Positions 253 to 6,849 of a stretch of DNA of 6,849 nucleotides are shown here, piece after piece. This DNA comes from a virus. Lineage: Duplodnaviria; Heunggongvirae; Uroviricota; Caudoviricetes. Location: IMG/VR virus record IMGVR_UViG_2617270976_000007, positions 1 to 6,849 of that record. One strand, written 5' to 3'. Both the position numbers and the translations under genes were made by a program. The notes beneath the pieces were generated by a model. It was not told where the DNA came from, did not search any database, and saw nothing but the letters and a program-made list of their open reading frames with translations. Each line of letters starts with the position of its first letter. Positions within the stretch are counted from its first letter, which is position 1.

Positions 253-278
253 TCATTTTTCAGATGGTGGAAAGAACC

Positions 279-2132
279 ATGGCATTTAAACACTATGATG
301 TTGTCAGGGCGGCGTCGCCGTCAGATCTTGCGGAAAAGCTGACACATAAACTGAAAGAGGGCTGGCAGCCGTTTGGTAGTCCGGTGGCCATAACCCCTTA
401 TACCCTGATGCAGGCGATTGCAGCAGAAGGTGATGTGGTCGTCAGTGGTGCAACTGAGCCGGAGTGGTACTACGTCATCGTACTGGCCGGGCAGTCCAAT
501 GCCATGGCTTACGGTGAAGGGCTTCCGCTTCCGGATTCATACGATGCGCCCCATCCGCGCATTAAGCAACTGGCCCGTCGTAACACAGTGACTCCCGGTG
601 GTGAAGTATGCGTATTTAACGACATCATTCCTGCTGACCATTGTCTGCATGATGTTCAGGATATGAGTACGATTAACCATCCCCGGGCTGACCTGAGCAA
701 AGGGCAGTACGGCTGTGTCGGCCAGGGCTTACATATTGCCAAAAAAATGCTTCCGTATATCCCTAATAATGCGGGGATCCTGCTGGTACCATGCTGTCGT
801 GGTGGTTCGGCATTCACCCAGGGCACGGAGGGGACATTCAGCGAGTCCACGGGGGCCAGTCAGGATTCGGCTCGCTGGGGAGTGGGTAAGCCGTTATATC
901 AGGATCTGCTTTTCCGCACGAAGGCAGCATTGCAGAAAAACCCGAAAAACGTTTTGCTGGCGATATGCTGGATGCAGGGGGAATTCGATATGACGAATGC
1001 CAGTTACGCCCAGCAGCCAGCAGCATTTCTTGCAATGGTACAGCAGTTCCGTGCTGACCTTGCCGGGCTGGCAGCGCAGTGTCACGGTGGAAGTCCGGCA
1101 TCAGTCCCCTGGATTTGTGGCGACACGACATACGCGTGGAAACAAGAACACGGTACGCAATATGAAGTGGTATATGGTGCATATAAAGGTAAAGAATCCC
1201 AGCAGATTTATTTTGTTCCCTTTATGACCGATGGTAGCGGAGTTAATACACCGACAAACAACCCGTCAGAAGATCCTGATATTGCCGGGTCTGGTTATTA
1301 CGGTTCGGCATCCCGAACGAACAAAAACTGGGTATCATCAAATCGCCCGACGCATTTCAGCTCATGGGCGCGTCGTGGCATTATTCCCGATCGTATGGCA
1401 ACTGCTATTCTGAACGTAGCCGGGCGCACCTCAGCCTTCATCAGTGGTAAGGCACCGGAAATCAAACCCTCGCCCGGCGGCGACACGCCATCGGTGCCGT
1501 CTGAAGATGCATCCGTACGCACAATCTCCCTGTTGCCGACAGCCGGAGATGCTGCTGCGCAGGGCTGGAGCATTAAGAATGGCGGAATTCAGTTGTCAGA
1601 TGGTGTATTTAAGATCACCAAGCAGAGCAATAAAGCCTGGTCCCTGACGCGCCCGGTGGATGACGCAGTCTCCCTGCTGACACGGGGTGGCAGACTGAGC
1701 TGTAAGTTTCGACTGTCAGGCGCACTGACCAACAACCAGTTCGGTCTGGGAATTTATCTGTATACCGATGTAGCGTTACCTGACGTCGTGGCGATGACCG
1801 GGACTGGTAACCCGTTCCTGATGTCGTTCTTCACCCAGACCACAGACGGCAAACTGAATCTGATGCATCACAAGAAAGCCGGAAACACAAAGTTGGGCGA
1901 GTTCGGGAATTACAGTAACGACTGGCAGACGCTGGAGCTGGTGTTCACCGCCGGCAGTGCCACGGTTACTCCGAAACTGAATGGAGTGGCTGGCCCGGCA
2001 TTCCAGGTCATAAAAGACAGTCTGACAGTGGGACTAAATGCACTGACGCTGACGGATATTACCAAAAATGCAACGTATGGCGTTGAGATAGAAAGTCTGG
2101 TGCTGGAGATAAATGCACCGGCATCATCATAA
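279..2132 (+). CDS. nanS-p: Prophage sialate O-acetylesterase of the NanS/YjhS family (NanS-p-like): N-terminal extension, SGNH/SASA esterase core, C-terminal beta-rich putative carbohydrate-binding domain
   Basis: Long ORF with stop TAA at 2130-2132. The GQSN serine block ([19 protein letters not shown]) and following blocks ([56 protein letters not shown]) match the NanS esterase family as I recall it. About 220 extra C-terminal residues fit the phage-borne NanS-p architecture. Start is uncertain: ATG 279 (GGTGGA 7 nt upstream) or in-frame ATG 264. Confidence 0.8.
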
Positions 2133-2217
2133 AAAGTGAGCCAGTCAAATGGAAGGTATCGTTAAACTCACCGGTAGTGTCAGTGGGTCGTCTGAGACGC
2201 CTGCATGAGTTATCAGA

Positions 2218-2249
2218 GCCATCAGTACTTAACTGGTGGCTTTTTTATT
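2218..2249 (+). terminator. Putative rho-independent terminator between the esterase gene and the holin
   Basis: Stem GCCATCAG (2218-2225), loop TACTTAA, stem CTGGTGGC (2233-2240; 8 bp with one G-U pair), followed by TTTTTTATT (2241-2249). Confidence 0.55.
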
Positions 2250-2281
2250 GTTGTCAGCTTCCGGATAACGGGAGACGGGGT

Positions 2282-2497
2282 ATGTACCAGATGGAAAAAA
2301 TCACAACAGGTGTGTCATACACCACGTCAGCGGTGGGAACGGGCTACTGGTTCCTGCAGTTGCTGGACAGGGTTTCCCCGTCTCAGTGGGCGGCAATAGG
2401 CGTGCTGGGGAGTCTGCTGTTTGGGCTGCTGACATATCTGACTAACCTGTATTTCAAAATCAGAGAGGACCGTCGTAAGGCTGCACGGGGAGAGTAA
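2282..2497 (+). CDS. S: Class II holin (pinholin) of the phage 21 S21 / EssQ type, 71 aa, with dual-start motif
   Basis: [71 protein letters not shown] has two hydrophobic segments and the charged C-terminus [13 protein letters not shown] typical of S21-like pinholins. Met1 and Met4 give the holin/antiholin dual start. GGAG lies upstream. The 106-aa ORF-track version (2177) runs through the terminator and is not the real start. Confidence 0.9.
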
Positions 2498-2501
2498 TTC
2501 A

Positions 2502-2846
2502 ATGACTCAAAACTATGAACTGATTGTGAAAGGGATCCGCAATTTTGAGAATAAAGTTACGGTAACTTTAGCGTTACGGGACAAAAAACGCTTTGACGGT
2601 GAAATTTTTGACCTGGACATCTCGCTGGACCGTGTTGAAGGTGCCGCGCTGGAGTTTTATGAGGCAGCAGCCAGAAGGAGCATCAGACAGGTCTTCCTGG
2701 ATGTTGCTGCCGGGTTATGTGAAGGGGATGAGCAGTCGCCGGAAAAGCGCCCCGTAATTTTAGAGGCGCAGGATGTGTTGATAACCTACAGAGGAAAACT
2801 ACCGGGAATAATTACGGGTTCTCTGAAGAGTCCGCCGAAATGGTAA
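2502..2846 (+). CDS. Small conserved lysis-cassette protein, 114 aa, at the position ydfR (DUF1327) occupies between essQ and rrrQ in Qin-type prophages; function unknown
   Basis: ATG at 2502 is 4 nt after the holin stop, with GGAGAG 7 nt upstream, which implies translational coupling. Placement between pinholin and SAR endolysin matches the essQ-ydfR-rrrQ order. Sequence identity to YdfR was not verified. Confidence 0.65.
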   Translation: MTQNYELIVKGIRNFENKVTVTLALRDKKRFDGEIFDLDISLDRVEGAALEFYEAAARRSIRQVFLDVAAGLCEGDEQSPEKRPVILEAQDVLITYRGKLPGIITGSLKSPPKW

Positions 2847-3084
2847 TTTTACCAGCATATTTTTCATCCAGTAATACAGCAAGCCGCCTGAAAGAGTCTT
2901 GTTGTTCCTGAGACCATTTGGGATTGCATGATTCAAACTGGATTGATGCCAGCGTTGATTGCATCTGTTCCCTTGGAATTGAGAATGCCAGATATGAGAA
3001 GGCGACGGTAAGGGTATTCACGTCTTCCCGAAGCCTAGAAATGCTGTCGAGCAACTCCTGTAGAGAAATGGTGTTATTGTCCAT
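2812..3084 (-). CDS. Hypothetical 90-aa protein encoded antisense inside the lysis cassette; its 3' end overlaps the previous gene by 35 bp
   Basis: Minus-strand ATG at 3084 is preceded by GAGGA with 6-nt spacing (ATCATGAGGATTATTTATG). Translation MDNNTISLQELLDSISRLREDVNTLTVAFSYLAFSIPREQMQSTLASIQFESCNPKWSQEQQDSFRRLAVLLDEKYAGKITISADSSENP is helix-like with a balanced composition. The segment is AT-richer than the flanking lysis genes. No homolog recognised. Confidence 0.4.
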   Translation of the reverse strand: MDNNTISLQELLDSISRLREDVNTLTVAFSYLAFSIPREQMQSTLASIQFESCNPKWSQEQQDSFRRLAVLLDEKYAGKITISADSSENP

Positions 3085-3189
3085 AAATAATCCTCATGAT
3101 TGTATTGACCTGTTAGCAGCCTGAGGCAACAGGCTGGAACTGATAAACATATCCAGGGCTCAGAAACCGATAAATCCTGATAAATATCC

Positions 3190-3735
3190 ATGAACGCAAA
3201 AATCAGATACGGCCTGTCGGCTGCCGTTCTGGCGCTGATTGCCGCTGGTGCGCCTGCGCCTGACATTCTCGACCAGTTTCTGGATGAAAAGGAAGGTAAC
3301 CACACCACGGCATACCGTGATGGTGCGGGTATCTGGACCATCTGCCGCGGTGCCATCCTGGTGGATGGCAAACCTGTCGTTCCGGGCATGAAGTTGTCGA
3401 AGGAAAAATGCGACCGGGTTACTGACATGCAGATGCGTCAGCGTGATGTTGCTGCGCTCGATGCAAAATACACGAAGGAGTTAGCTGATGCGAAAGCTGA
3501 AAATGAAACTCTTCGCGCTGACGTTGCCGCTGGTCGTAAGCGCCTGCGTATCAACGCCACCTGTCCAGGTCCCGTGCGTGAAGCCACCGGCACCGCCCGC
3601 GTGGATAATGCAACCGGCCCCCAACTGGCAGACACCGTTACACGGGATTATTTCACCCTCAGAGAGCGGCTGATGACGATGCAGAAGCAACTGGAAGGGG
3701 CGCAGGAATATATCCGTACTCAGTGCCTGAAATAA
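3190..3735 (+). pseudogene. In-frame fusion of SAR endolysin R (RrrQ-like, N-terminal ~76 aa) to the i-spanin Rz C-terminal periplasmic domain; deletion junction near 3419-3424
   Basis: Residues 1-76 (MNAKIRYGLSAAVLALIAAGAPAPDILDQFLDEKEGNHTTAYRDGAGIWTICRGA...KEKCDRV) match the RrrQ/R21-type lysozyme N-terminus, including the SAR-like Ala/Gly-rich segment and the E-x8-D-x5-T catalytic spacing. From TDMQMRQRDVAALDAKYTKELADAKAEN onward the protein matches lambda Rz up to its C-terminus ...LEGAQEYIRTQCLK. The lysozyme C-terminal lobe and the Rz N-terminal membrane anchor are missing. Confidence 0.8.
3488..3673 (+). CDS. Rz1: Rz1 outer-membrane lipoprotein (o-spanin), embedded in the +1 frame of the Rz portion
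   Basis: MRKLKMKLFALTLPLVVSACVSTPPVQVPCVKPPAPPAWIMQPAPNWQTPLHGIISPSESG has a signal peptide with lipobox VSAC and the proline-rich mature region, closely like lambda Rz1. AAGGAG sits 7 nt upstream of the ATG. Confidence 0.85.
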   Translation: MRKLKMKLFALTLPLVVSACVSTPPVQVPCVKPPAPPAWIMQPAPNWQTPLHGIISPSESG

Positions 3736-4085
3736 GTTTTGTTGATGCGCCGTATCGTCGCTGTATTCCCTCATTAACAGAGACCGCAGCCCGACAGGGA
3801 GACTCCTCTGCGCGAGTGTGCGGGGATAATCAAAAACGATACACACCGGGGTTTACCGCGTTAACGGAGCGCGGCGTTGTCCCCTCATAGTCGCCTGTCC
3901 GGTGCGATGGTGGAAGAAACCGGATGTTTATCACTATTAATTGATGACACAGAAATGGATTCATTGAATTTCAGCACGTTTTTGTATTCGTGTTATTGAA
4001 CATCTGTTTATTTTACTTTTAACATATTGATAATAAAAAGAGCTGTAAATCTTTAGATGAGTCGATTTTGTCCGGGGAAGTTCAA

Positions 4086-4226
4086 ATGGATTTTATGCTG
4101 ACGGTTTCTGGTGTGGTTATCCTGTCCATTGCTTATACTGCAGATAAATATGGCTGCCATTTGTTATCACGTATTGGCGCTTATTGTTCGTTGATGCTGA
4201 TTTTCTCGTCGCTTTTTTTTGAGTAA
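4086..4226 (+). CDS. Hypothetical 46-aa hydrophobic small protein (possible membrane peptide); not in the supplied ORF track because it is shorter than 60 aa
   Basis: ATG 4086 with GGGGAAG 5 nt upstream; translation MDFMLTVSGVVILSIAYTADKYGCHLLSRIGAYCSLMLIFSSLFFE, stop TAA 4224-4226. Possible sigma70-like promoter TTGAAC (3996-4001), 18-nt spacer, TAACAT (4020-4025). Lies in an AT-rich stretch between Rz and the cos-proximal gene. Confidence 0.3.
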   Translation: MDFMLTVSGVVILSIAYTADKYGCHLLSRIGAYCSLMLIFSSLFFE

Positions 4227-4358
4227 GTTATATTAATTATAACAAATAATTTTCTGTGTTATTTTTTCAGGCTATCCCGTCAGAGGGGAAGCCTGTACTG
4301 CCGGGGAGCGAATGGAAAACTGATGTGTCCGGTAACTGCGTGTTCTGTGAACACCATG

Positions 4359-4544
4359 TTACTTAATTATGTAATTCATACCCGAACTCTCTGTTGACAG
4401 CCTTCTTCTGCAGGCTTCAATAACCCACGCTGAAAAGTTTCCTGAACCTTTCAGATCAAGAGCGATGTTAATTTGTTCAATCATCTGGTTTGGAAATCGG
4501 ATGTTGCGGGTTGTTGTTCTGCGGGTTCTGTTCTTTGATGACAT
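4359..4544 (-). CDS. Small cos-proximal protein with predicted ribbon-helix-helix fold, homolog of the lambda right-end small ORF
   Basis: Minus-strand ATG at 4544 with GGGGA 6 nt upstream. MSSKNRTRRTTTRNIRFPNQMIEQINIALDLKGSGNFSAWVIEACRRRL... closely resembles, from memory, the small ORF on the complementary strand near lambda's right end (MSTKNRTRRTTTRNIRFPNQMIEQINIAL...FSAWVIEACRRRL). The beta-strand/helix/loop/helix layout fits an RHH DNA-binding fold. Confidence 0.7.
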   Translation of the reverse strand: MSSKNRTRRTTTRNIRFPNQMIEQINIALDLKGSGNFSAWVIEACRRRLSTESSGMNYIIK

Positions 4545-4721
4545 AATGTTTCCCCATATTCAGTGTTGCTGATTTGTATTATCTGAAGTTGCTTTTACGT
4601 TAATTTGATGCAGATCAATTAATACGATACCTGCGTCATAATTGATTATTTCTCGTGGTTTGATGGCGTACACACATGTTGTGATAAACCTTATATAGAT
4701 GATAATCATTATCATTTTCGT

Positions 4722-4915
4722 GGGTCCTTTCCGGCGATCCGACCGGTTACGGGGCGGCGACCTCGCGGGTTTTCGCTATTTATGAAAATTTTTAGGGAAA
4801 AATCAGATCCGTTCTTCTTCTTTTTAACTGATTGATTATCAATAGAATTTTAAAAATATAAAAGGATCTGACAAAGGCTGTTTTTGTTAGAAAACGCCAT
4901 TTTCAGATCCTTTCT
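4722..4915 (+). other. Lambda-type cos site: cosQ-proximal sequence, cosN (12-nt cohesive end GGGCGGCGACCT at 4752-4763) and cosB with three terminase-binding repeats
   Basis: GGGTCCTTTCCGGCGATCCGACCGGTTACG|GGGCGGCGACCTCGCGGGTTTTCGCTATTTATGAAAATTT is near-identical to the lambda genome-end junction. Three CAGATCC elements (about 4806-4812 direct, 4863-4869 inverted, 4904-4910 direct) have the orientation pattern of lambda R3/R2/R1, immediately upstream of the small terminase gene. Confidence 0.85.
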
Positions 4916-4932
4916 GGTTCCCGGGGGAGTGT

Positions 4933-5481
4933 ATGAACGTCAATAAGAAAAAACTGGCCGATATTTTTGGCGTTGATGTCAGGACCATCACCGCCTGGCA
5001 GAGTCAGGGGTTACCACTAGTTTCTGGTGGAGGGAAAGGGACTGAATCAGTTTTTGATACAACTGCTGCCATTCAGTGGTATGCGCAGAGGGAAGCTGAT
5101 ATTGAAAACGAAAAACTCCGTAAAGAGATCGAGGATTTGAGGGCTGCCAGCGAATCAGACCTTCAGCCCGGCACCATTGATTACGAACGTTACCGACTGA
5201 TGAAGGCACAGGCCGATGCACAGGAGCTGAAAAATGCTCGTGAGGAAGGCCTTGTCCTCGAGACGGAGTTATTTACCTACATCTTTCAGCGAGTGGCACA
5301 GAATATATCAGGGATCCTTGTCCGTGTCCCTCAGACACTGCAGCGTAAATACCCTGATATATCACCCGTACATCTTGATGCTGTGAAAACTGAAATCGCG
5401 AAAGCATCCGATGTGGCTTCTGAAGCCGGTGAGAATGTGCGCAGGTGGATTGATGATTTCAGACGAACTGAGGGCGGCTAA
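4933..5481 (+). CDS. nu1: Terminase small subunit (lambda Nu1 / NohA family), apparently full length, 182 aa
   Basis: [42 protein letters not shown]...[48 protein letters not shown] aligns along its length with lambda Nu1 (MEVNKKQLADIFGASIRTIQNWQEQGMPVLRGGGKG...). It sits directly downstream of cosB and its stop (TAA 5479-5481) overlaps the start of the next gene. Confidence 0.9.
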
Positions 5482-6103
5482 TTCTGCAGGAGCGATAGCA
5501 ACCGGCCTCCTTGCGCTAAAAATTCCTGTCCCTCTGACGACAGTTCAGTGGGCAGATCGACATTATTACCTTCCGAAAGAGTCATCTTACACCCCGGGGC
5601 GGTGGGAAACACTGCCGTTTCAGGTTGCCATCATGAACAGCATGGGGAATGACCGGATCCGCACTGTTAATCTGATTAAATCTGCCCGTGTTGGTTATAC
5701 AAAGATGTTGCTGGGAGTGGAGGCTTATTTTATTGAGCATAAATCACGCAACAGCCTTCTTTTCCAGCCCACGGATTCTGCTGCTGAAGATTTTATGAAA
5801 TCTCATGTGGAACCCACGATCAGGGATGTGCCGGTTTTACTCGATCTTGCACCGTGGTTTGGGCGTAAACATCGTGATAATACCCTCACGCTGAAACGTT
5901 TTTCATCGGGCGTGGGCTTCTGGTGCCTGGGCGGGGCTGCCGCTAAAAACTACCGTGAAAAATCCGTGGACGTGGTCTGCTATGACGAACTTTCCTCGTT
6001 CGAACCGGATGTCGAAAAAGAGGGTTCGCCAACCCTGCTTGGGGATAAACGTATTGAGGGCTCTGTATGGCCCAAGCCGCCGTGCAGGAGAACCAGCGAG
6101 TGA
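5453..6103 (+). pseudogene. A: Terminase large subunit (lambda gpA family), N-terminal ~216 aa only; truncated by an internal deletion with the junction near 6077-6080
   Basis: ...VQWADRHYYLPKESSYTPGRWETLPFQVAIMNSMGNDRIRTVNLIKSARVGYTKMLLGVEAYFIEHK...GFWCLGGAAAKNYREKSVDVVCYDELSSFEPDVEKEGSPTLLGDKRIEGSVWPK matches lambda gpA residues ~35-205. Similarity ends after GSVWPK and the frame stops at 6101-6103, whereas full gpA is about 640 aa. Start codon is uncertain (5453, 5435 or 5411, all in frame). Confidence 0.85.
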
Positions 6104-6569
6104 TGGGGATCCTGACATGCCAGGAAGCGAAAGGACGTGAACAGCTTGCCACGATGCTGGCAGGGCAACAGGGCATGAGCGTTGAACAGGCCCGGGCGAT
6201 TCTGGCCGCGGCGGCACCGCAGCAGCCGGTGGCATCCGCGCAGAGTGAAGCCGATCGCATTATGGCGTGTGAAGAAGCGAACGGTCGTGAACAACTGGCA
6301 GTAACGCTGGCGGCGATGCCGGAGATGACGGTGGAAAAAGCCCGCCCGATCCTGGCTGCTTCACCGCAGGCGAATGCCGGACCATCACTCCGTGATCAGA
6401 TCATGGCCCTGGATGAGGCAAAAGGGGCTGAGGCGCAGGCTGAACAGCTGGCTGCCTGCCCGGGAATGACCGTGGAGAGCGCCCGGGCTGTGCTGGCTGC
6501 GGGATCAGGTAAGGCAGAACCGGTCTCTGCATCCACAACCGCCCTGTTTGAACATTTCATGGCGAACCA
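6079..6569 (+). pseudogene. Fragment of a repeat-containing phage protein (three ~45-aa tandem repeats; possibly the C-terminal region of a head protease/scaffold-type morphogenesis protein); 5' end set by the deletion junction, 3' end interrupted by IS1
   Basis: Frame-1 translation contains three related units: RVMGILTCQEAKGREQLATMLAG..MSVEQARAILAAA; RIMACEEANGREQLAVTLAAMPEMTVEKARPILAAS; QIMALDEAKGAEAQAEQLAACPGMTVESARAVLAAG. The last codons (VMTPTY, stop) are IS1-derived, so the native C-terminus is lost at 6570. Functional assignment is a guess. Confidence 0.4.
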
Positions 6570-6849
6570 GGTAATGACTCCAACTTATTGATAGTGTTTT
6601 ATGTTCAGATAATGCCCGATGACTTTGTCATGCAGCTCCACCGATTTTGAGAACGACAGCGACTTCCGTCCCAGCCGTGCCAGGTGCTGCCTCAGATTCA
6701 GGTTATGCCGCTCAATTCGCTGCGTATATCGCTTGCTGATTACGTGCAGCTTTCCCTTCAGGCGGGATTCATACAGCGGCCAGCCATCCGTCATCCATAT
6801 CACCACGTCAAAGGGTGACAGCAGGCTCATAAGACGCCCCAGCGTCGCC
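6570..6849 (-). mobile_element. IS1 insertion sequence, right-hand portion in reverse orientation (extends beyond the window); terminal inverted repeat GGTAATGACTCCAACTTATTGAT at 6570-6592
   Basis: 6570-6821 is the exact reverse complement of 1-252; starts with the canonical IS1 terminal repeat and encodes InsB on the minus strand. Confidence 0.93.
6585..6849 (-). CDS. insB: IS1 transposase InsB (InsAB' C-terminal portion), 5'-partial; coding continues beyond the window edge
   Basis: Minus-strand translation ...[87 protein letters not shown], stop at 6585-6587; identical to the InsB fragment at 1-237. Confidence 0.9.

Follow-up and report, generated by a model that had tools for sequence, protein, structure and literature searches.

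An intact cos site and small terminase gene in a probable young lambdoid prophage remnant of Escherichia coli

The stretch of DNA analysed here (the window, 6849 bases) is the complete draft contig JNQT01000097.1 of Escherichia coli 2-316-03_S4_C2 (assembly GCA_000704325.1). It carries the packaging site cos and the small terminase gene terS of a lambdoid prophage, followed by a truncated gene for the large terminase TerL. The window is very probably a young, strain-private remnant of an ordinary lambdoid prophage, produced by neutral and recent decay, and its cos would have passive consequences only. The initial annotation, made from the sequence alone, had likened the arrangement to a cos-type satellite. 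According to the Pfam and PHROGs matches, the gene order between the IS1 copies at the two contig ends is that of a lambdoid late region: esterase, holin, YdfR-like gene, lysozyme::Rz with Rz1, DUF3950 gene, cos, terS, the truncated terL' and a fragment of an S49 protease gene. The window is colinear with the prophage L010, its closest intact relative, apart from four lesions, and is in this sense a cryptic, defective lambdoid remnant.

The cos site consists of the following elements.
4722-4728, + strand: cosQ, GGGTCCT, the packaging termination element, invariant across six aligned cos regions.
4752-4763, + strand: cosN, the 12-nt cohesive-end sequence GGGCGGCGACCT.
4781-4795, + strand: I2-type region of an integration host factor (IHF) site, TATGAAAATTTTTAG, at an offset equal to that of the annotated phage 21 I2 and conserved in all cos regions compared.
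4801-4816, + strand: R3 box of cosB, core CAGATCCGTTCT at 4804-4815, matching the Gifsy-1 R3 core.
4825-4837, - strand: I1, the IHF site between R3 and R2, AATCAATCAGTTA, a perfect WATCAANNNNTTR, at an offset equal to that of the annotated phage 21 I1.
4858-4873, - strand: R2 box, inverted, core CAGATCCTTTTA at 4859-4870, with one mismatch.
4901-4916, + strand: R1 box, core CAGATCCTTTCT at 4904-4915.

The cosQ sequence is identical to those of lambda and phage 21, and the distance from cosQ to the nick is exactly 30 nt, the same as in lambda. The cosN sequence GGGCGGCGACCT is identical in lambda, phage 21, and the K-12 prophages DLP12 and Qin, and Gifsy-1 differs from it at three positions (bp 8, 9 and 11). 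Counted from the cohesive end, R3 occupies bp 50-65, I1 72-86, R2 107-122 and R1 150-165, and this spacing is base for base that annotated for phage 21 in M81255. The lambda R3 is also located at bp 50-65 (Murialdo and Feiss, PMC9026076). The R-box motif CAGATCCKTTYT gave three matches in +/-/+ orientation against 0.10 expected, and none of 200 shuffled sequences reached three. At the place corresponding to the R2 of the window, Gifsy-1 carries AAAGGATCTG. The site thus has the properties of a lambda-like cos, namely cosN, the cosQ spacing, and a complex cosB with an inverted R2 and an IHF site. The initial annotation had described cosQ, cosN and cosB as intact, with three CAGATCC repeats in the R3/R2/R1 pattern; all of these are present at the positions listed. 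Mutation of cosN or of the R repeats relative to functional relatives, named there as a ground for doubt, is not seen in the comparison. The 1386 bases from 4690 to 6075, running through cos to the break in TerL, match with 100.000% identity in L010 and L014, two intact prophages that possess full TerL, portal, protease, capsid and tail genes.

The small terminase gene is as follows.
4933-5481, + strand: terS, Nu1 family, full length, 182 residues (Pfam Phage_Nu1 PF07471, phrog_57).

Both profiles span TerS residues 1-181, and the protein is aligned end to end with lambda Nu1 and phage 21 gp1, so that the full-length Nu1-family gene claimed earlier is borne out. In the collection, 81 blocks are indexed with exactly this TerS protein, and the protein occurs in many intact prophages. 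All eight contexts that were readable and long enough show a TerL of 642 or 656 residues, and all seven that reach further also hold portal, S49 and capsid genes. The sole difference from TerS of the relative L001 is T90M. This substitution was considered as a decay mutation and rejected, as many intact prophages have exactly this M90 protein.

The recognition helix of the window TerS is RTITAWQS, compared with RTVTAWQS in Gifsy-1, RTIQNWQE in lambda and RTIERWQS in phage 21. The R boxes are of the CAGATCC type in the window and Gifsy-1, of the CGTTTCC type in lambda, and of the CGTGTCGG type in phage 21. A packaging specificity of lambda or phage 21 was therefore rejected: the R boxes, like the recognition helix, are unlike those of either phage and match those of Gifsy-1. 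The TerS wing is also near-identical to that of Gifsy-1. The C-terminal, TerL-binding end of TerS is of the phage 21 type, and the DNA from 5036 onward (the TerS C-terminus and TerL) is closest to phage 21, with 83% identity. Judged by these sequences, the packaging module is a natural mosaic of a lambda/21 cosQ and cosN, Gifsy-1-type R boxes and TerS DNA-binding domain, and a phage 21-like TerS C-terminus and TerL. The complete cosN-cosB-TerS DNA-binding domain of the window class was found in 223 of the 5426 complete E. coli genomes (roughly 4%), and the cosN-I2 portion alone matches in 4220 of them. A prophage of this type is thus present in roughly 4% of complete E. coli genomes. In the case of L027, another E. 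coli remnant described below, CAGATCC-type R boxes stand beside a quite different cosN. Thus, the CAGATCC R-box class travels with several cosN types.

The region downstream of terS contains the truncated large terminase gene and its junction.
5453-6103, + strand: truncated TerL, 216 residues in all, consisting of residues 1-207/208 and then about 8 out-of-frame codons, with the stop at 6101-6103.
6074-6075: junction left by a deletion of 3999 bp, which joins TerL codon 208 to S49 codon 309 at an AA microhomology.
6074-6569, + strand: codons 309-474 of the S49 gene for the head maturation protease/scaffold, a fragment 100% identical to L001, L010 and L014 (phrog_53).

The truncated TerL is colinear with residues 15-208 of lambda gpA with 73% identity, and its homology to the intact relatives stops at 6075. 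The TerS-binding end is retained, as are the segments that align with the lambda gpA motifs Walker A and Walker B. Only GpA_ATPase matches, and no GpA_nuclease match, were obtained from Pfam, and the nuclease and portal-binding domains are gone. TerL of the intact relatives has 642 residues with GpA_nuclease, and a functional lambda-type gpA has about 641 residues; no such protein is encoded in the window. The deletion took out the rest of TerL together with a W-like gene, the gene for the portal and the greater part of the protease gene. These results agree with the earlier reading that the large terminase ends after about 216 residues and is joined to an unrelated fragment, the frame being lost after residue 207/208 on entry into the S49 gene. 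The remnant was also said to be unable to package itself, and this is supported, since the TerL nuclease domain and the portal and capsid functions are gone.

The TerL::S49 junction was found in 0 of the 5426 complete genomes. In the gene-position index and the cluster table, there is no record of the 216-residue protein read from the annotated TerL start, and the called 156-residue product of the junction is recorded solely on this contig. Many TerL fragments of exactly 216 or 248 residues are present in the databases; they are frameshifts that start at a GCT AAA AAC run near residue 165, and they are probably homopolymer sequencing errors or real pseudogenes. The recurrent 216-residue fragments were rejected as relatives of the window TerL, since they are frameshift products that end at a shared out-of-frame stop and have a different junction.

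The comparison with L010 indicates how the prophage decayed. By blastn, the identity to L010 is 98.1% for 253-3421, 99.96% for 3419-6075 and 100% for 6074-6569. The esterase-holin part (98.1%) thus differs in identity from the cos-terminase-S49 part (99.96-100%), and this step indicates a recombination boundary inside the late region. The first of the four lesions is an IS1 inserted 11 nt before the esterase open reading frame (ORF), which severs the link to Q and the late promoter pR' that sit upstream in the relatives. The second is a 751-bp deletion, across which lysozyme residues 1-77 continue in frame into the C-terminal part of Rz. The third is the deletion of 3999 bp that leads from codon 208 of TerL to a point within the S49 protease/scaffold gene, and the fourth is another IS1, at codon 474 of the S49 gene. 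The deletion junctions carry 2-3 bp of microhomology. The prophage would thus have been inactivated by four independent lesions, two IS1 insertions and the two microhomology deletions of 751 and 3999 bp. On this reconstruction, cos and terS would be intact merely as the stretch between the two deletions, spared by the lesions so far. The sequence gives no sign that cos and terS have been kept by selection. Among database fragments, TerL is truncated or fused at many positions, the partners being tail fibre, minor tail, portal, S49, IS1 and the TerL C-terminus itself. Such a variety of positions fits ordinary decay. Further independent cos-retaining remnants of the same kind are L017, L023 and L027.

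The contig boundaries are formed by the two IS1 ends.
1-252, + strand: IS1 end, with the 3' part of insB and the terminal inverted repeat (Pfam DDE_Tnp_IS1); the homology to L010 begins at 253.
6570-6849, - strand: second IS1 end, inverted relative to the first, which cuts short the S49 gene and forms the right contig boundary.

Both contig ends lie inside IS1 copies, which are inverted relative to each other with the insB ends inward. The first end is the left contig boundary and parts the late genes from Q/pR'. An IHF consensus is present in each IS1 end, at 229-241 and 6581-6593. The source assembly is a 2014 short-read draft, and a literature search on the assembly accession found no paper. 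Most simply, the contig ends are the points where the short-read assembly broke at IS1.

Several points weigh against the reading of neutral decay. A further cos at packaging distance could lie in the flanks past IS1, as could genes for integrase and replication. The identity of 99.96-100% to intact relatives leaves no power to test selection on cos and terS in either direction. That the window cos would be cut and used by a cognate terminase in vivo is a prediction, drawn only from the 100% identity to the cos of intact prophages. Finally, the left ends of the deletions in four independent remnants fall within the same 10 nt of the TerL gene, TGGCCNAAA (codons 205/206-208), which hints at non-randomness. 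The four break points are as follows.
This window: 21-like TerL, break after TGGCCCAA at window 6066-6075, joined to the S49 gene.
L017 (icd-integrated, with sopE): TerL 99.4% identical to that of Gifsy-1, break after TGGCCTAAA at 10616-10625, joined to a tail fibre assembly gene.
L023 (DUF1398-DUF3950-cos-Nu1), E. coli: lambda-type TerL, break after GGTCT at about 3320, joined to another position of the S49 gene.
L027, another E. coli lineage: break after GGTA at about 4230, joined to the portal gene.

The cluster may be due to chance (plus search bias), to a deletion hot spot, or to selection. Ranking bias contributes, as the query itself ends at residue 208 and the survey was not an unbiased one. 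The PHROGs profile phrog_4145, named 'terminase large subunit', has 209 positions and matches residues 2-208 of the window TerL. L017 (1-15388, GCA_002045405.1) is a compact Salmonella-type remnant of about 14 kb within the icd gene, with the order int-xis-ninG-Q-lysis-PPC-cos-Nu1-TerL(1-208)::tfa'-sopE-umuDC. In this remnant, cos and TerS are kept next to a type III effector gene, and the cluster headed by the truncated TerL product (P0009) has 525 member sequences. The clustered break points raise the idea that cos-terS-terL' remnants might be other than random debris, shaped either by a hot spot or by selection for a TerS and TerL(1-208) product with an intact cos. We give this explanation a slim chance. 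If it were true, the selected TerS, TerL(1-208) and cos could serve as a packaging decoy, in terminase interference, or as a recombination cassette for incoming phages. The clustering is the only element of the analysis that might repay a systematic survey.

The window could also be a helper-dependent mobilisable element, in which cos and its own TerS are kept so that a co-resident lambdoid helper packages and spreads the remnant. The cos and TerS of the window are perfect copies of the versions in intact prophages, and potential helpers of the same cosB class exist in the 223 genomes mentioned above. In addition, defective prophages with matching cos are packaged by a co-resident terminase in O157 Sakai (PMC2669165), and for lambda and phi80 to transfer a plasmid, a cloned cos site is enough (PMC6092414). 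Nevertheless, we regard this explanation as very unlikely. In the 6.3 kb between the IS1 copies, Pfam and PHROGs revealed no ORF for integrase, excision, replication, AlpA, Rpp-like or other interference functions, in a contig that ends in IS1. Fragments of lysis and structural genes remain, which are absent from phage-inducible chromosomal islands (PICIs; PMC6092414), and the cosB is the phage's own, not of a diverged PICI type (PMC9026076). The architecture is private to one strain. One chromosomal cos yields stalled, tailless particles, not transducing ones (PMC4669245), and the contig, which runs unbroken through cos-terS-terL' and the S49 fragment, argues against a second near-identical copy of this segment in the genome; such a copy is presumably absent. 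The terS gene is disconnected from the Q/pR' late promoter by IS1. A promoter scan for terS gave four signals, compared with 3.3 expected from shuffled sequences, and none of them was above chance.

The view that the remnant keeps exactly the parts needed by a helper terminase holds in so far as a matching terminase could act on cos in trans; a helper of the same specificity, on the other hand, would bring its own TerS and has no need of the copy in the remnant. The initial annotation had also pointed out that no integrase, replication or interference genes are visible. This is correct by Pfam and PHROGs, although it is uninformative in the case of integrase and replication genes, because the whole contig ends in IS1 on both sides. 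In general, draft contigs that end in IS elements cannot demonstrate the absence of such genes. The logic of a cos-type satellite, by comparison, finds no support, in view of the private junction, the phage lysis and structural pieces, the phage's own cosB and a terS without a late promoter.

Another explanation is an IS1 composite transposon, in which the 6.3-kb segment, with its esterase, lysis remnants, cos and terS, would be mobilised as a unit by the pair of inverted IS1 copies. The IS1 ends do flank the segment, inverted and with the insB ends inward. The contig, however, includes no more of the IS1 copies than their inner 252 and 280 bases, with the outer flanks and any target duplications beyond the assembly break. 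At the inner junctions, IS1 has simply inserted into a prophage that is otherwise colinear, and the segment was found in no other context. A transposon of this kind is considered very improbable.

An anti-phage decoy is highly improbable. In this explanation, the chromosomal cos, the chimeric TerS and the TerL N-terminal fragment would misdirect or poison the terminase of 21-like phages or phages of the same class. TerS is a natural chimera of Gifsy-1-type recognition and phage 21-type TerL-binding modules, and the truncated TerL retains the residues aligned to lambda gpA 15-208, including the TerS-binding end. Initiation at a resident cos wastes proheads (Feiss et al., PMC4669245), and Rpp of PICIs acts by redirecting TerS and TerL (PMC9026076). 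The same chimeric TerS, however, is the normal TerS of intact prophages, and because these prophages carry it, the chimera was not made for interference. The promoter scan and the separation of terS from Q/pR' give no sign of expression, the arrangement is private and recent, and a defence gene is absent from the window.

Finally, it is hardly credible that the deletion junctions are chimeric joins made in the short-read draft. In favour of such joins, the contig is short and each junction is backed by this single contig. The junctions share only 2-3 bp, however, which is far too little for a misjoin driven by repeats, and a pair of distinct, clean junctions, along with a lysozyme::Rz ORF that stays in frame, is more characteristic of real deletions.

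The genes upstream of cos are as follows.
264-2132, + strand: SASA/NanS-p-type carbohydrate esterase, an intact prophage cargo gene (Pfam DUF1737, SASA and DUF6645; annotated in relatives as 'SASA family carbohydrate esterase').
2282-2497, + strand: class II holin, intact (Pfam and the L001 annotation).
2502-2846, + strand: YdfR/DUF1327 gene, intact (Pfam and the L001 annotation).
3190-3735, + strand: in-frame fusion of lysozyme (residues 1-77) to a C-terminal portion of Rz (blastn comparison with L001 and L010; Pfam Phage_lysozyme and Phage_lysis on one product).
3488-3673, + strand: Rz1-type o-spanin ORF, intact within the Rz remnant (phrog_3198, Rz-like spanin, E=1.8e-29).
4359-4544, - strand: DUF3950 (YlcI/YnfO family) gene (Pfam and the K-12 annotation).

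The lysozyme::Rz junction made by the 751-bp deletion lies at 3419-3421, with TTA microhomology. The fusion product has 181 residues and, like the TerL junction product, is recorded solely on this contig in the gene-position index and the cluster table. The spacer between Rz and cos (window 3736-4721) is a variable cargo slot among the relatives. It holds bor in L009 (8680-10000), an IS3-family remnant in L001 (16200-17560), and a P4-cII-like gene with a PF14350 Beta_protein gene in L008 (7550-10000), L012 and L016. The DUF3950 gene occupies the slot in this window and also in DLP12 and Qin of K-12, where it is the upstream neighbour of cos in both prophages.

The intactness of cos and terS, and the loss of the nuclease, portal and capsid functions, are seen directly in the window, and the consequences of a resident cos can be predicted from other phages. 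In the case of a resident prophage whose cos has the specificity of a growing phage, packaging enters the bacterial DNA and stalls at a full head, and a tailless, non-infectious particle is formed (Feiss et al., PMC4669245, section 18). At the window locus, a CAGATCC-class terminase provided in trans would assemble on R3-I1-R2-R1 with IHF and then nick cosN. Packaging would run rightwards from 4752 via terS, the junction and IS1 into the DNA beyond. If no second cos lay at one genome length, packaging would stall and tailless, non-infectious particles would be made. The double-strand break at cos would stimulate recombination, and incoming phages would receive cos-terS or cargo alleles from the remnant, in the manner shown for DLP12 and lambda. 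Remnants of this kind are known as recombination donors for incoming phages and as sinks for matching terminases, so that the phage susceptibility and gene exchange of the strain could be slightly affected.

Compared with known systems, the window shares with the cos-type satellites (PICI EcCICFT073, SaPIbov5 and P4) a cos of the kind that a helper cuts and the lack of a large terminase of its own (PMC6092414, PMC9026076). PICIs of Gram-negative bacteria have their own attachment sites, integrase, AlpA, pri-rep/ori and interference genes such as rpp; they are without phage lytic and structural genes, their cosB is unrelated to that of the helper, and their replication supplies tandem cos sites (PMC6092414, PMC9026076). 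In the 6.3 kb between the IS1 copies at the contig ends, no integrase, AlpA, pri-rep/ori, Rpp, attachment sites or tandem cos were seen. Phage genes are present (the holin, lysozyme::Rz, Rz1, and the TerL and S49 fragments), cosB is identical to that of intact prophages, and no ORF for a redirection gene was found. PICIs are elements that recur in many genomes, whereas this architecture occurs in 0 of the 5426 complete genomes and on one contig in the gene-position index.

The predicted fate of the locus resembles the 'doc'-type in-situ packaging of lambda, in which a single chromosomal cos is cut in trans and packaging is unidirectional and non-terminating, giving tailless particles (PMC4669245, section 18). 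For the window locus, however, such packaging is a predicted fate only. The prophage Sp4 of O157 Sakai is packaged without an intact terminase of its own, which was attributed to the terminase of Sp14, the cos sites being identical (Asadulghani et al., PMC2669165). Sp4 is likewise a defective lambdoid prophage with a terminase defect and an intact cos identical to that of a competent relative. Unlike the window, Sp4 keeps its integrase, and is excised and amplified; none of this is visible in the window contig, and no co-resident partner is known.

In the case of Gifsy-1, which is listed among the phages with three R boxes and an IHF site (Murialdo and Feiss, PMC9026076), the CAGATCC-core layout of R3(+), R2(-) and R1(+) with the IHF site is shared with the window, and the recognition helix and wing are nearly the same. 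The window differs in its lambda/21 cosN, in a TerS C-terminus and TerL nearer to phage 21, and in its E. coli host, Gifsy-1 being a Salmonella phage.

The K-12 cryptic prophages DLP12 and Qin also have the DUF3950 gene, an intact cos and a Nu1 homologue, followed by a truncated or deleted TerL joined to a downstream morphogenesis gene. The order in DLP12 is ylcI-cos-nohD-aaaD'-tfaD, with the A homologue broken at about residue 102. In Qin, the order is ynfO-cos-nohA'-stfQ; the break lies near Nu1 codon ~176, and the large terminase is deleted. Complete lambda-type cosQ, cosN, I2 and R3-I1-R2-R1 are present in both. DLP12 and Qin differ from the window in the lambda-type R boxes and TerS and in the fusion to tail-fibre genes, whereas the window has Gifsy-1-type R boxes and helix, a deletion of only 4 kb that ends in the protease/scaffold gene, and an occurrence in one strain. 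A literature search on packaging or lateral transduction from the cos of DLP12 or Qin found nothing specific. The nu1, R and Rz genes of DLP12 work and its cos is functional once they are recombined into lambda, and the junctions of the DLP12-lambda recombinants cluster at cos, consistent with breaks made by terminase; recombination is stimulated by breaks at cos (De Paepe et al., PMC3945230). By default, a half-decayed lambdoid prophage shows an intact cos beside a deleted terminase, and this picture should be read with caution. The window adds a further cryptic lambdoid remnant, in which cos and a noh-type gene are intact, to a kind known since the noh and qsr' work on K-12.

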